Source: Oligoflexia bacterium
Lineage (GTDB): Bacteria; Bdellovibrionota; UBA1018
Reading direction: 5' to 3'
Length of the DNA: 64,000 nucleotides
NCBI GenBank assembly: GCA_043732485.1
Contig: JAYTHP010000114.1
Coordinates: 10,006-74,005, forward strand
Shown: positions 57,906 to 64,000 of the stretch, one piece after another
Position numbering within the stretch: the stretch's first letter is position 1
How the letters are laid out: each line of letters begins with the position of its first letter
Notes under the pieces: generated by a model
Database searches by the model: none
Told to the model about the DNA's origin: nothing
The model's input: the letters and a program-made list of their open reading frames with translations, nothing else
Position numbers and translations under genes: made by a program

Positions 57906-59303
57906 ATGCAACGACTTGCAGCCCTGCTGCTGATGATGACGATCTTGTTCTCTACTGCCTCCGCCTTCTTCGGACTGAGGCTTGCTCGGGCGGGCAGTGC
58001 GCACTCTCAAGCGCACTGTCACGCCTATGATCATGACGCGGACTTGAGCAATGATCAGCCTCCTCTTCTACCCCCTCCCCCTCCTCACCACCAGGCGGTC
58101 ATGCTGATGACCCTTCACGCCTTACTCCCGCAAATTGCATCCCATCTTGATCCTCGCTCAACCGTAAAACTTGCGGCCTGCTCGAAAATGACTTGGAGTT
58201 TACTGATGAGCCAGCCGCAGTTTATCAGCTACAAGCGGCAGCAGAGTTGCGACCAGCTTACAGACAGTGATTGGTTGGATTATCAGCAATTCTTGCCAAA
58301 AAGTCATCCTGCACGCACTCCTCGTACCTCAGTTTATGCAGTCCCCTACCTCTCCAATGCTTTAAAGTTGCGCTTTGTCGATGGGAGCGCTTTGCAGCAC
58401 TTTCTCGCATTACCGGACGCCGCAGACTTTACTCAAATTGCCGTTGATTTTCTCAGCCCCCAGGAGTGGCGTGCTGAGAACTGGCAAAACCTCCACCTCC
58501 TGAAAAATGCTGAGAAGATTGAGCTTAATTTAAATCACTTTCATTTAGGGGACCTCGGTGCAGCCTGGCTTGCGCAAGTACTGGCGCACCCCAATAATCG
58601 CTTAAGCGCTCTGGGGCTGCGATTTAATAGTATTACCGCCGTGGGCGGCAGACAACTAGCCCAAGCACTGCGCGAGCCACATAATCGGCTGAGCGCCCTG
58701 GATCTGAGCTGGAATCACTTAAGCGACGACGGTGCCAAGGAATTGGCACTCACCCTCAGGCACCCGAACAATCAACTGAAAAGTTTGGATTTAAGCTGGA
58801 ACGACTTAAGCGCCACAGGTCTGAAGGCTGTGGCCTTAGCGCTGCGCAATCACAACAACCGACTGACCGCTTTGAATCTGCACCGTAACCGGATGCCAGA
58901 ACTGGTGGCCCAGACTTTGGCGCGCACCCTGACCCATCCGCATAATCACCTCCACCACCTCAATGTGAGTTGCAACCAGCTGCAAAGCGCAGGGGCAATT
59001 GCCCTGGCCGCTGCACTGCGCAGCAATTTGCACCTCAGGCACTTAAATTTGAGTCGTAACCACATTAAAACCACAGGCGCAATCGCCCTGGCTGCAGCCT
59101 TGAAAGAAAACCGCCACCTCAGGCACTTGAACTTAAGCGATAACCAGATTCAAGGCGCAGGGGCAAAAGCCATTGCCCTTGCCCTGCAAGCCAATCCTCA
59201 GCACCAGCTCATCTTGCTGAACCTTACGGAAAACCTCCTGATTCCAGCCTGCTTGCAAGCCGAGCTCAAGGCCGCAGTCCTGCACTGTCACTTCATTTTT
59301 TAA
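57906..59303 (+). CDS. signal peptide + F-box-like + RI/NLR-type LRR protein (intact)
   Basis: Signal MQRLAALLLMMTILFSTASA. F-box-like LHALLPQIASHLDPRSTVKLAACSKMTW. About nine 28-30 aa repeats of LxxLxLxxNxIxxxGxxxLAxAL. Confidence 0.88.
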   Translation: MQRLAALLLMMTILFSTASAFFGLRLARAGSAHSQAHCHAYDHDADLSNDQPPLLPPPPPHHQAVMLMTLHALLPQIASHLDPRSTVKLAACSKMTWSLLMSQPQFISYKRQQSCDQLTDSDWLDYQQFLPKSHPARTPRTSVYAVPYLSNALKLRFVDGSALQHFLALPDAADFTQIAVDFLSPQEWRAENWQNLHLLKNAEKIELNLNHFHLGDLGAAWLAQVLAHPNNRLSALGLRFNSITAVGGRQLAQALREPHNRLSALDLSWNHLSDDGAKELALTLRHPNNQLKSLDLSWNDLSATGLKAVALALRNHNNRLTALNLHRNRMPELVAQTLARTLTHPHNHLHHLNVSCNQLQSAGAIALAAALRSNLHLRHLNLSRNHIKTTGAIALAAALKENRHLRHLNLSDNQIQGAGAKAIALALQANPQHQLILLNLTENLLIPACLQAELKAAVLHCHFIF

Positions 59304-59513
59304 CGGGGCTCAGCGGCGGATCTTAGAGTACGACACCACTCCGCTTCGATTTAAAAAAAATTGAGGAAAAAATCGTTGGCGAGTCATTTTTTATTTCATT
59401 TCTTCCTCAAAAGGACGTTTACTCTTCAAAAGAAGTTCAGTGTGCTCAGTTTACCAAAAACAATGCCGCTTGTGGGTGCACGAAAAAATGGAAGTGAAAG
59501 CTGAAAAAAAATT

Positions 59514-60704
59514 ATGAACAAAAACAAGCCCTTCTATTGCTTCCCACGCAATCACCTGTCTGTGGTCTTACTGAGCGTGGGTCTCCTCTCACGGCTCGTT
59601 ATTCTTTTCTTCGTTGTCATTGACGGAGGTAGCCGCGCTGTAACCCCTGACAGTTCTCAGCACTTCCGCCCGCACCTGAACCGCAGATTACTCCGCCACT
59701 CTTGCCCGTGGTCACTCCACTGACGCAACTCCCAGCCGCTTTCCTCTCAACGCCTGTTGTCCCGTCGCCTCAGGTTTAGCCAGCAACCCTCCGACTCAGG
59801 TTGCTTTACGCATCATTAAGCCTGTGCTTGCCTTGCGAGGGATGGGCTGTGTGTGATGTGCCACGCGCAGATCCAATCCAATGTCATTACCGACTTTGGA
59901 GCGGGCGATGACGTCGTGTTCATGGGCGGACCCCCCGGCCCGTTAAGAATCATCGTTTTTTTACCGAGAGCGATGGTGAAAACGGCCACTCGCGCTGGGA
60001 TACGAATCTCTACTATTCTTGGCAAACGGCAACCATCAAAGGCAGCGTTTACGTGCCGAACGTCAACGTACCCTTAAATACCCTTTCCAGCCTGCAGCCG
60101 GTTACCTCACTCGGCGACACGCAAACGCCCTCACCCCTTTGGCCGGCCCCTTATCCCGCAACCGGCATTCCGCTCGCAGCCTTGCTGACCACCCTCTACG
60201 TGAGGCCCCCCGATGCCTGGCCCTTAAATAACGGCACCGTCCCGTTCAATCAGCCCCGGTTTCTTTTGGCATTACGCCACTGCAAGCCACAAGCGCCGCG
60301 ATTCATAGTTTAAGCCAAGTCACGATTCGCGCGCCGTTAGCCTCTGAGATCTTAAGCATCGCCACGCAACCGCTGCAGTCCAGCGGCTTTCAGACGTTTG
60401 ATGGTCGCACCGCAGGCTTGAACTGAAAGACCAATTACATCACGGCCTCAAGCTTAACCTGTTACGGCGATGTGGTGATCAACGGACCACTCTTTTCAAA
60501 TGCCCTATCGGTAACCACCGATTTTCTCACCTGCTGCTCAATGCCCCGGTCGTTGAAAGCCGTTATCTTGGTCAATTGCAAGGCGTGCTGATTGCTGAGC
60601 TGGCGCAATTCCGGCTCGGGCAATTTAATTTCATCTTTGATCCGATGTTTGGCGATGCTCCTATCTTCCCGCTCCTCCCCACTGACATCCTAGTCGCGCA
60701 GTGA
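59514..60704 (+). pseudogene. degraded tandem copy of the CxxCH lipoprotein gene at 61102-62583
   Basis: Same start (MNKNKPF), near-identical internal stretches, frameshifts, TGG>TGA at 60424. Lacks the segment equivalent to 62097-62400. Confidence 0.92.
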
Positions 60705-60712
60705 GGCCAGAC

Positions 60713-60900
60713 GACCCTGATGATCTCACTCTTGCAGCAGCAAATCGCCTCAATCGTTTTTCCGGATGCCAGTCTTTAAAAAGATGCCCCCCCAGGTGCA
60801 CTTCGAACTTGAGCAGGGGGCTGATCAGGCAGTGAGCACGCCAAAATCCGTCTACCTTGCGGTAATGCCTAAAAAATGCAGCTTTGATGGCAAAGCGAAC
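60713..60900 (+). pseudogene. fragment of a duplicate of the PRPP-synthetase-like gene
   Basis: CAGCAGCAAATCG...CCGGATGCC...GCACGCCAAAA...CCTTGCGGT...GCAGCTTTGAT aligns with about 63828-64000. Confidence 0.85.
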
Positions 60901-61101
60901 GACGGGGTGGCAAGTCAGGGTGTGACCCCACTGCATTGATCCTACAAAAAACTGAGAAAAAAGGCCCAGGGTGTCATTTCTGATTTCATTTTTTCCTCAA
61001 AAAAGACGATAGCCCTTCAAGAGGAGTTCAGTGCACTCAGCTCACCAAAAACAGTACCCTTTTGGGTGCAAGGGGAGTGGAAGTGAGAAATAAAAAAAAT
61101 T

Positions 61102-62583
61102 ATGAACAAAAACAAGCCCTTCCATTACTCCGCGCGCAATCACCTTTCTGCGGTCTCACTGAGCTTGAGTCTCCTCTCACAGCTGGTCATCATTTTCGTC
61201 GTTATTATCGGCGGCGGCGGGTGTAACCCCTCACAGTTCTCGACGCTTCCGCCCGCGCCCGGGCCTGAACCAAAAATTACACCACCACCTTTACCCGTAG
61301 TCACTTCCCTACCCCAACTGTCAACGGTTGTTCCCCCACTTCCGGTAGCCTCAGGCTTAGCCAGTAACGCTCCCACTCAGGTCGTTTTACGCACCATTAA
61401 GCCTGTGCTTGCCGTGCGAGGGATGGGCTGTTTGATGTGCCACGCGCAGATTCAATCCAATGTCATTACCGACTTTGGAGCGGGCGATGACGTCGTGTTC
61501 ATGGGCGGACCCCAGCCCGTTAATAATCATCGTTTTTTTACCGATGTCAGCGGTGATAACGTCCACTCGCGCTGGTATACGAATCTCTACAATTCTTGGC
61601 AAACGGCAACCATCAAAGGCAGCGTTTACGTGCCGAACGTCAACGTGCCCTTAAATACCCTTTCTAGCCTGCAGCCGGTTACCACACCCGGCGGCACGCA
61701 AATACCCTCACCCCTTTGGCCGGCCCCGTATCCCGCAACCGGTATTCCGCTTGCAGCCTTGCTGACTACCCCCTACGTGAGGCCCTCCGATGCCTGGCCC
61801 TTAAATAACGGCACCGTCCCGTTCAATCAGCCGGTTTCTTTTGGCGTTACGCCACCGCAAGCCACAATCGCCGCGATTAATAGTTTAAGCCAAGTCACGA
61901 TTCGCGCGCCGTTAGCCTCTGAGATCTTAAGCATCGCCACGCAACCGCTGCAGTCCAGCGGCTTTCAGGCGTTTGATGGTCGCACCGCAGGCTTGAACTG
62001 GAAGACCAATTACATCACGGCCTCAAGCTTAACCTGTTACGGCGATGTGGTGATCAACGGACCACTCTTTTTAAATACTCTGTCGGTAACCACCGATAAC
62101 CAGGGCTGTCGCCTCTACGTAACAGGCTCGGTGTTCATTCAAGGGCTGATCACTTTTAACGGGGACGAGACCCTCTACCCGAAACAAAACCTGCAAATCT
62201 CAAGCTCCCGGGCCATCGTGATGGGAGTTGGTACAAGCGAATTGCAAAATCGACTGGTCACGGATAACCGCGGCATGTGGACGCGCAACGGTAACTGGAG
62301 CGACCGCGCCGCAGAAATCTTAGCCGATCAAGCCGCCATTGGCAGAGTGATCATCGATGCCACCGACCCGGGTAACCCGGTGGTCGATCCGAAACTCAAC
62401 TTTTCTCACCTGCTGCTCAATGCCCCGATCGTTGAAAGCCGTTATCTTGGTCAATTGCAAGGCGTGCTGATTGCTGAGCTGGCGCAATTCCGGCTTGGGC
62501 AATTTAATTTCATCTTTGATCCGGTGTTTGGCGATACTCCTATCCTGCCGCTACTCCCCACTGACATCCTCGTCGCGCAGTGA
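61102..62583 (+). CDS. putative lipoprotein with a single CxxCH motif
   Basis: Hydrophobic segment ending GGGC, Pro-rich linker, GCLMCHAQ, beta-rich C-terminal part. Confidence 0.75.
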   Translation: MNKNKPFHYSARNHLSAVSLSLSLLSQLVIIFVVIIGGGGCNPSQFSTLPPAPGPEPKITPPPLPVVTSLPQLSTVVPPLPVASGLASNAPTQVVLRTIKPVLAVRGMGCLMCHAQIQSNVITDFGAGDDVVFMGGPQPVNNHRFFTDVSGDNVHSRWYTNLYNSWQTATIKGSVYVPNVNVPLNTLSSLQPVTTPGGTQIPSPLWPAPYPATGIPLAALLTTPYVRPSDAWPLNNGTVPFNQPVSFGVTPPQATIAAINSLSQVTIRAPLASEILSIATQPLQSSGFQAFDGRTAGLNWKTNYITASSLTCYGDVVINGPLFLNTLSVTTDNQGCRLYVTGSVFIQGLITFNGDETLYPKQNLQISSSRAIVMGVGTSELQNRLVTDNRGMWTRNGNWSDRAAEILADQAAIGRVIIDATDPGNPVVDPKLNFSHLLLNAPIVESRYLGQLQGVLIAELAQFRLGQFNFIFDPVFGDTPILPLLPTDILVAQ

Positions 62584-62821
62584 GGCCCAAGTCACCCTAA
62601 GCTGAGCTTGGCCTCTTGGCTTCCGCTTGCCCTCTTTTCCGCCCACACACCCCCGCTCCTTTTGTCGGGTGGCGCCCCGGCCATTTTCTTGCTTGTGCTA
62701 GGCGAACCCTTGGTCTAATCTTAAAGGCGCAGAACCTAGAGCGCCCCCAAAAACCAAACAAGATCGGCAAAAAAATCAGATGTTTTCCCCTGCTGTTTTT
62801 CTTCGACCTGTAATCTCTCAG

Positions 62822-64000
62822 ATGACCTGTCATGGCGCAACGTTTTGCCAGCGGGCATTGAGCCGCAGGCGGTTGCTCGTTTTGCCACTCCTGATACTGG
62901 CACTTCACGGGCTTGCGGCCGCTGATGTGGCCATTACGGTGGGTGCTGATTCGGAGGCTTTTTTGGGTCAATTAGCCAGTCTACAGCTTCACCCAACCGT
63001 CTTGCCGACACAAACTGGCCATTTTCCGGAAAACACTCAAAGTTTTGTCAGACTCTATCACCCAACTCTCAACCCGCGCACCGTGAGCGTGGTTCACCAA
63101 AAAGTCTGGATCCAGGTTCCCGCAAAGCTGACCTATGATCTTTTAATGGAGCTACTGATTAAAGTTCGCTCCGCGCAGACTTTTGGCGCAGCAAGCATTC
63201 ATGCTTTTGCTCCCTGCCCCCTTGCGCAAGTCGAGCTGATCCCACCGCCAGGCGACCTGCCGCCTCAAACAGCTCTCTCGCTGGAACACTTACTGATGCA
63301 GGCCGGCTGTCAGCAGGTGTGGGAAGGTAAAAGCTCGCGGTGGTTGCAAACCCCAGTCAGCTCTCCTGCGAGGGTAGCGGCGGCTCCTGCGCTTCAAAAA
63401 TCCTCAGTCGCGGCTCCCTTTTGGATTGCAGGTCACTTGCATACCGCCTTGCGCGATGAAGTGGCGCAGCTGCTCGGACAAACGGCCTATGCGTTTGCCG
63501 AGTTGCAACAACACCCTGAGCAATTACTGCATCAACGCATCTACTGGATTGCCTCAGCCATTCCCCCCGTCAATGACACGTTTTTCACCTTGCTTGCGCA
63601 AGTCCATTTTTTAGTCCAACACGGAGCCGAAGTCATCTGGATTGCTCCCTATCTCCCCTACGCTCGCTCGGATAAGCCTGAGTTTCAATGGGGAGTCGCC
63701 AGTGTCGGTAAATTAGCCGCTGATTTGATGGAAGGCAGCGGTATCCAAGGCATTAAAGTGGTCAGAGCCCATGCTCCGCAATCGCTCGCTTTTTTTAAAA
63801 TCTTTGCCGAAGAACTGACCGGACGCCCGACCCTGATTGCCTACCTCCTACAGCAGCAAATCGACTGTATCGTTTCTCCGGATGCCGGCTTTCAGAAAGA
63901 TGCCACTCTGGTGCAACTCGAACTCGAACAGGCTTATCAAGCAGCGGGCACGCCAAAAACCGTCTGCCTTGCGGTCATGAATAAAAGACGCAGCTTTGAT
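62822..64000 (+). CDS. ribose-phosphate pyrophosphokinase-like protein with signal peptide and extra N-terminal domain, partial
   Basis: Open frame from ATG 62780/62822 to the window end (my translation). PYLPYARSDK, AADLMEGSG, HAPQSLAFF, IVSPDAG, MNKRR. Confidence 0.85.
   Translation, partial: MTCHGATFCQRALSRRRLLVLPLLILALHGLAAADVAITVGADSEAFLGQLASLQLHPTVLPTQTGHFPENTQSFVRLYHPTLNPRTVSVVHQKVWIQVPAKLTYDLLMELLIKVRSAQTFGAASIHAFAPCPLAQVELIPPPGDLPPQTALSLEHLLMQAGCQQVWEGKSSRWLQTPVSSPARVAAAPALQKSSVAAPFWIAGHLHTALRDEVAQLLGQTAYAFAELQQHPEQLLHQRIYWIASAIPPVNDTFFTLLAQVHFLVQHGAEVIWIAPYLPYARSDKPEFQWGVASVGKLAADLMEGSGIQGIKVVRAHAPQSLAFFKIFAEELTGRPTLIAYLLQQQIDCIVSPDAGFQKDATLVQLELEQAYQAAGTPKTVCLAVMNKRRSFD

Follow-up and report, generated by a model that had tools for sequence, protein, structure and literature searches.

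A predicted exported PRPP synthetase with a duplicated N-domain in an Oligoflexia bacterium and related Bdellovibrionota

Results

The gene and its surroundings

The window (the whole 64,000-nucleotide stretch of DNA analysed here) ends where its contig, C114, ends, and a gene for a PRPP synthetase-like (Prs) protein is interrupted there by the contig end alone. A single open frame from 62780 or 62822 to 64000 contains every motif quoted in the preliminary description, and that description's claim of an unbroken open reading frame was borne out when the extension past 64000 was found on contig C108 and in run X1. The full-length protein (P0001, 497 aa) is identical across the part it has in common with the window's frame, and its residues 395-497 match C108:2-310 at 100% identity, so that the gene is completed on C108. 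A 2,160-base contig of run X1 spans 62466-64000 and then extends further; as X1 is possibly the source of the window's DNA, its support is not independent. Runs X3-X5 yielded short low-depth pieces only and were left out. The gene is real and intact, with 497 open codons, and its features are as follows.

62822..62923, + strand: predicted signal peptide, residues 1-34 (Arg-rich n-region, hydrophobic window, AAA-D; heuristic)
62780 (ATG) or 62858 (TTG), + strand: alternative starts
62924..63355, + strand: extra N-domain (N'), residues 35-178; a Prs N-domain copy with FLAG hairpin and N-N interface helices, without the YARxD RF loop
63011..63061, + strand: FLAG hairpin, F68-x-x-N71-x-Q73 (family F-x-N-G-N-T-F-V), assigned from conservation and the modelled interface
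63356..63412, + strand: flexible linker, residues 179-197 (pLDDT <50 at 180-184)
63413..63856, + strand: catalytic N-domain, residues 198-345; RF loop YARSDK and RAH, FLAG hairpin deleted
63857..64000, + strand: start of the C-domain, residues 346-393 (SPDAG, K388, R390; DDETASGGT onward on C108:2-310)
60712..60888, + strand: decayed partial copy of 63828-64000, 78.5% DNA identity, frameshifted and with stops; outside the working gene

The last of these belongs to a larger feature, as window positions 59352-60888 are a decayed tandem copy of 60943-62587 plus 63828-64000. The copy carries frameshifts and deletions (identities of 86%, 96% and 78.5%), and X1 contigs support parts of it.

As the preliminary description had proposed, the gene is not the housekeeping prs. 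A separate canonical prs (YARQD, DLH, DDMIDTAGT) is split across C20 and C238, next to genes that we take, from reading their translations, to be pth and ychF, and a canonical-scoring Prs is also present in 13/13 genomes that hold the three-domain family described below. Readings of the gene as a truncated pseudogene or as the sole prs were rejected on these grounds, the C-terminal part lying on C108 and the canonical gene elsewhere.

The exported Prs stands alone here, between a gene for a 493-aa protein and, on C108, an opposite-strand DEAD-box helicase. The 493-aa protein (61102-62583, + strand) has a hydrophobic N-terminus ending in a lipobox-like Cys, has a CxxCH motif, and belongs to no Pfam or NCBIfam family. 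Further upstream, a protein with a signal peptide and LRR_6 repeats (57906-59303, + strand) ends in CHFIF. The genome holds 27 related ORFs, many with a signal peptide and a C-terminal C-x-x-x-F; among nine LRR proteins searched for an F-box there was one weak match (E 0.003, below cut-off) and none in the window's protein, so that a eukaryotic host is not indicated. This genome also has a type II secretion cluster, and together with the LRR-related ORFs this is in keeping with a bacterium that depends on a host and sends out effectors by way of the periplasm.

Family membership and distribution

Of the 86 proteins retrieved by a word search, 85 were members or fragments of the family, and a profile search added 49. 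After ten fragments were dropped from the 134 collected, 124 covered the profile end to end, and these full-length members share one plan: a signal peptide, an extra Prs N-domain and a normal Prs. Where a carrier is named, it belongs to the Bdellovibrionota (Bdellovibrionales, Oligoflexia, Oligoflexales) or bears a loose proteobacterial label. At E 1e-60 the profile matched 22 of 401 sampled Bdellovibrionota genomes, 13 with the three-domain protein, in eight families, and nine with a two-domain relative; within the order the figure is 5 of 116. A two-domain Prs that is Thermus-II-like occurs in nine genomes of small size (1.2-2.2 Mb, families f19 and f26; loci L084-L092). A rapid IQ-TREE phylogeny built on the two-domain core separated 45 three-domain rows from 67 two-domain rows (SH-aLRT 99); it is unrooted, and its two-domain set is biased towards top matches. 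The patchy spread of the three-domain Prs suggests transfer or repeated loss.

The family has variants. A divergent sister clade (P0143, P0150, P0171, P0186, P0197) keeps the three-domain plan with YSVHQAQ instead of VRAHAPQ, and fusions of the exported Prs (P0118, P0119, P0132, P0049, P0123) add a Ppx/GppA-like domain, unknown N- or C-terminal domains, or ITPase-APRT.

A literature search that most subscription papers lay outside turned up no description of a Prs that is exported or has three domains. The terms Bdellovibrio, Oligoflex, signal peptide, secret, fusion, periplasm, export and tandem do not occur in the available main text of bioRxiv 10.64898/2026.06.01.728777, and the supplements of that preprint could include these sequences without a name. 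The predicted exported, single-chain Prs family of Bdellovibrionota is apparently undescribed so far.

Export signal

The preliminary description had read the N-terminus as a Tat signal peptide, and the two parts of that claim fared differently: the signal is conserved among homologues, but the twin-arginine motif is not. Export signals were scored by a hydropathy heuristic in 121 N-terminally complete members, 13 of the 134 being excluded as incomplete or internally fused. By this rule an uncharged hydrophobic N-terminus was found in 115/121 homologues compared with 3/40 two-domain controls, and a hydrophobic stretch together with a basic n-region in 102/121 compared with 0/40. This copy has SRRRLL, a hydrophobic stretch and an AAA-D end, with an uncharged 10-residue window of mean hydropathy 3.17. 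It is the only one of the 121 with a twin-arginine motif (RR within the first 35 residues occurs in 8/121), and Tat as a family trait was accordingly rejected. For this copy Tat export is possible, since the genome encodes TatC (E 2e-64). RRxLL-like n-regions gave 12 pattern matches among this genome's other exported proteins, several of them spurious. From its sequences, export of the family looks Sec-type, and we consider the predicted Sec route very probable.

Two cysteines precede the FLAG hairpin in 47/124 members, which is what one would expect if folding takes place in an oxidising compartment. A further motif near the C-terminus, C-x-x-(hydrophobic)-(hydrophobic), occurs in 54/124 members and in 0/47 two-domain Prs, and may be a candidate cargo tag. 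Its enrichment across this genome (G000) is weak (18/498 compared with 8/423), and the exported Prs encoded here is without it. The same Cys motif follows the signal or ends the protein in many neighbours of the exported Prs (L023-L037).

Division of motifs between the two N-domains

In the preliminary description two Prs-like N-domains were distinguished, the first of them degenerate. The duplication stands, since the first domain is a Prs N-domain by hhalign comparison with two-domain Prs (probability 99.3, E 3e-20); the two Pribosyltran_N matches expected from Pfam were found in 5/9 other members scanned and only one in this copy. Pfam positions 3-87 were matched by the N' domain in 7/13 genomes. 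N' is not simply degenerate, as it has the FLAG hairpin now missing from the catalytic domain. The FLAG pattern is present in N' in 120/124 members and the RF pattern in 4/124; in the catalytic N-domain the RF loop is present in 124/124 and a FLAG-like pattern in 2/124. These patterns are imperfect, as only 42/47 and 34/47 two-domain controls match them. Within the hairpin of N', conservation is 109/124 for F, 108/124 for the first N and 109/124 for the second, and in this copy the conserved N73 is replaced by Q. The catalytic N-domain has a gap of about eight residues against 5t3o, 1dkr and 5mp7 at the FANDN/FSDGE hairpin. In class I Prs, according to the available text of bioRxiv 10.64898/2026.06.01.728777, two subunits form the ATP pocket together, one with its FLAG region and its neighbour with the RF loop, and the accessible part of PMC4363470 reports that F35A, K194A and R196A impair human PRS1. 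By sequence, the duplication reads as a division of labour, with N' predicted to supply the hairpin and the second N-domain the RF loop.

The AlphaFold model of the whole chain has a pLDDT of 92.2 and a pTM of 0.91. In a two-chain prediction of N' and the core that included ATP and Mg, N' docked onto the core with a score of 0.87, the best of three controls scoring 0.00; the docking mark was reached by 116/157 solved pairs and by 2/215 mismatched pairs, and because Prs hexamers have been solved, a pass may reflect likeness to those structures. Docking runs share at least 87% of contacts, with a partner pLDDT of at least 87. The modelled interface joins N' residues 68 and 70-80 to core residues 280-295 (including the RF loop), 420-421 and 449-451, of which 420-421 belong to the ribose-phosphate loop. 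From the model we infer that the exported Prs would be a single-chain version of the N-N dimer. The docking concerns two halves of one protein, so that a monomer is not implied and dimers through the C-domain are possible.

Catalytic residues and regulation

Residues 198-497 superimpose on human PRPS1 (8dbo) with Z 30.9 and rmsd 2.0 over 282 aligned residues, giving two PRTase-fold domains, and TIGR01251 scores 122 bits with a cut-off of 113. On catalytic equivalences taken from alignment with 1dkr, R282, H317, D354, R390, D416 and D417 are present in 124/124 members and K388 in 123/124; Q320 is likewise in 124/124. The human equivalents are R96, H130, D171, K194, R196, D220 and D221. A PRPSAP-like pseudoenzyme would be marked by loss of catalytic residues, and all are retained. 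These sequences suggest that the exported Prs is likely to be active and would make PRPP from ribose-5-phosphate and ATP.

The Asp of the class I DLH motif is Arg in 118/124 members, and Asn takes the place of the FLAG hairpin Glu, changes that may bring a different donor specificity or use of metal. The preliminary description had suggested altered chemistry from the DLH to RAH change, which now appears a weak argument: an Asp before the His is not universal, because Thermus Prs II has TLH, the His itself is invariant, and the neighbours described below are ordinary PRPP consumers. The conserved Arg of RAH and an invariant K359 are marks of the family. At the equivalent of class I Arg109 there is a Gly (G291) in 120/124 members, and the SVSxLF-type C-terminal tail is found in 1/124 members compared with 25/47 two-domain controls. 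We take the RF-loop Arg and this tail to be allosteric or filament elements; judged from the alignment, the class I allosteric elements appear to be lost from the exported Prs. The protein is a member of the Prs superfamily that falls outside class I by hairpin position (in N' rather than inside the catalytic N-domain), by regulation and by location.

Neighbours in homologous loci

Twenty-five distinct homologous loci were compared, 21 of an initial 45 plus four from genomes G084, G146, G101 and G079. The 24 left out are from Myxococcota, Gammaproteobacteria, Chloroflexota and archaea, and those inspected hold two-domain Prs. A signal-peptide-bearing PRPP consumer (APRT, a NAPRT fusion or a family resembling glycan phosphoribosyltransferases, here gPRT-like) lies near the exported Prs in 15/25 loci, and 19/25 have at least one partner type, with none in the flanks examined of the other 6/25. 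Related genomes are not independent, and these figures are to be read as counts. The APRT neighbour scores above the NCBIfam cut-off, and an ITPase/XTPase-like domain lies beside or inside the gene in 4/25 loci, joined to APRT in three. In G084 and G146, a NAPRT-NadD-PncA fusion, NadE and the exported Prs lie in a row, ordinary NAPRT genes being separate, and in G101 and G079 a 1,262-aa NAPRT fusion lies about 12 kb from the exported Prs. At L094:3401-8877 and L096:2164-8872 the NAPRT-NadD-PncA fusion and a glutamine-type NadE, all signal-peptide-bearing, adjoin the exported Prs. SLOG/LOG proteins occur in 10/25 loci (nine by Pfam, one by BLAST) with an intact PGGxGTxxE motif.

The gPRT-like proteins form an unnamed family, FLGRD, found in 8/25 loci (L025, L026, L027, L028, L031, L035, L036, L037), often in several copies. 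They are predicted to be secreted, with an invariant GRD and a PRTase-like fold (model pLDDT 89.7). Pfam, NCBIfam, a PDB sequence search and ESM Atlas gave them no name, and Foldseek found no match at E 0.001. The best structural matches of the model are the glycan ribofuranosyltransferases 7shg and 8a0c (Z 11.0, 210 aligned, next 6.1), and the match is middling (rmsd 4.0, 12-14% identity). According to the available part of PMC10299916, enzymes of this type use PRPP and transfer ribose-5-phosphate to a hydroxyl.

By the same heuristic, 37/38 partner proteins have a hydrophobic N-terminus compared with 1/16 hand-picked cytoplasmic neighbours. Since three unrelated PRPP-using folds adjoin one enzyme, we argue that its product would be PRPP. 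These clusters also encode further proteins that seem to carry signal peptides, namely aldehyde dehydrogenases, zeta-toxin-like kinases, an AAA ATPase and a BtpA protein (L094:10340-12136, L095:12988-14694, L096:10548-11777, L118:14207-15955, L036:10795-13311, L032:7428-8408). In the window's own genome (89% complete), NTPase-APRT, an exported (long) SLOG, NAPRT and gPRT-like FLGRD were not found, nor were PurC or a clear NadE.

Discussion

The closest solved structure by sequence is Thermus thermophilus PRPP synthetase II (5t3o, 7pn0; E 1.5e-58 with the family profile). It and YARSDK/DDEI-type two-domain Prs share with the exported Prs YARSDK, DDE, a FLAG hairpin of Asn type and a residue other than Asp before the His; unlike the exported Prs, they have two domains, no signal peptide, and FLAG and RF together in a single domain. 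Class I Prs (B. subtilis 1dkr, E. coli 6asv, human PRPS1) have the same core fold (Z ~30) and the same catalytic Arg, His, Asp, Lys, Arg and Asp-Asp, but are cytoplasmic hexamers with shared active sites and ADP feedback, whereas in the exported Prs the FLAG hairpin has moved to an extra domain. The nearest functional precedent is phage Adps of NARP1, compared here by the residue numbers of PMC13586617. In the available part of that paper, Adps is a Prs fold used inside another organism's cytoplasm without allosteric control; unlike the exported Prs, it is a two-domain hexamer with an adenine-stacking Phe18 from the neighbouring subunit, acts on ADP-ribose, has a Namat partner and is described without a signal peptide. 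NARP3 relies on other enzymes, as far as the accessible text of PMC13464706 goes. CriT/glycan phosphoribosyltransferase modules (8a0c, 7shg), which match the FLGRD neighbours in fold, are polysaccharide polymerase domains, whereas those neighbours are stand-alone and signal-peptide-bearing.

We think it probable that the gene encodes an active exported PRPP synthetase with its active site complete within one chain. The N-domain would have been duplicated and its jobs divided, with N' giving the FLAG hairpin in cis, the second N-domain the RF loop and the His, and the C-domain the ribose-5-phosphate loop and the catalytic Lys and Arg. No hexamer would be needed, an oligomeric state that we infer, and the ADP feedback sites would be lost. 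Such a design would suit a protein that has to pass through a membrane in unfolded form and then function at high dilution in a compartment not its own. After Sec export, passage would probably be through the type II system to a destination with ATP and ribose-5-phosphate, either the prey or host cytoplasm or lysing prey; this step and this destination are favoured by a small measure. The PRPP would be made for co-exported APRT, NAPRT-NadD-PncA with NadE, and O-phosphoribosyltransferase-like proteins, and SLOG nucleosidases would supply ribose-5-phosphate. In this partner-less genome, the PRPP may be for host enzymes or for others not yet named.

The same neighbours could serve other ends. An unregulated Prs and SLOG might together form an energy-draining weapon, in which target ATP would be turned by Prs into AMP and PRPP, and AMP by SLOG into adenine and ribose-5-phosphate, until the adenylate pool of the prey or host is empty. 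The SLOG genes with their intact motif, the loss of allosteric elements, and the signal-peptide-bearing kinases and zeta-toxin-like kinases of these clusters speak for such a cycle, but other loci pair Prs with nucleotide-making APRT and with NAD salvage, and we regard a weapon as unlikely. That exported NAD salvage, complete and in order in G084 and G146, is instead what would be expected if the cassette rebuilt NAD or ATP destroyed by prey immunity, much as phage NARP does, with ADP-ribose as a possible acceptor. The ITPase-APRT partner and the NrtR genes that adjoin L033 and L038 point the same way, and Adps too is without allosteric parts in the available text of PMC13586617. The NAD partners, however, belong to the PRPP-using nicotinate route, no Namat-like neighbour was seen in the flanks examined, and 0/28 phage records cover 80% of the protein. 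The phosphate loop DDETASGGT also lacks the Asp216 and Phe221 given for Adps in the accessible part of PMC13586617 (Asp in 7/124), and counter-defence of this kind seems to us rather improbable.

A use closer to home, in which Prs would work in the carrier's periplasm or at its surface and supply PRPP to gPRT-like proteins that ribosylate the carrier's glycans, draws on the glycan ribofuranosyltransferase matches of the FLGRD family and on HAD-type phosphatases at L032. The periplasm normally has no ATP pool, the APRT, NadE and kinases that bear such signals likewise require cytoplasmic substrates, and no glycan genes were found in the loci examined, all of which make this the most doubtful of the readings. 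The family may also be as we describe it and this genome's copy a decaying orphan or a non-catalytic binder, given the partners missing from the 89% complete genome, the decayed partial duplicate upstream and the N73Q change. Against this, all 497 codons are open, every invariant residue is kept, and the end branch of 0.55 compares with 0.17-0.52 for the eight closest tree relatives; we give such decay little credence.

In a wider reading, which is tentative and more doubtful than the exported synthetase itself, Bdellovibrionota would deliver whole cytoplasmic pathways into prey or eukaryotic hosts as Sec-exported effector sets, with Prs as the hub. SLOG would strip target nucleotides to ribose-5-phosphate, Prs would convert this to PRPP at a cost borne by the target, and that PRPP would drive either the rebuilding of NAD or AMP or a new O-phosphoribosyltransferase family that phosphoribosylates macromolecules of the target, with the C-x-x-x-F/L motif perhaps marking cargo.

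PRPP synthesis is commonly held to be cytoplasmic, with active sites shared between subunits. A natural single-chain Prs would be a test of what oligomerisation and allostery are for, and could serve as a compact, feedback-free catalyst. The exported PRPP consumers beside Prs in relatives suggest that nucleotide chemistry is run inside prey or host, and the exported Prs may be the hub of an exported pathway of a new kind. If enzymes that depend on ATP and PRPP are exported in sets, predatory or host-associated Bdellovibrionota would have a means of acting on target metabolism that has so far gone unrecognised, and such sets may offer a testable handle on the many unexplained secreted proteins of this group.
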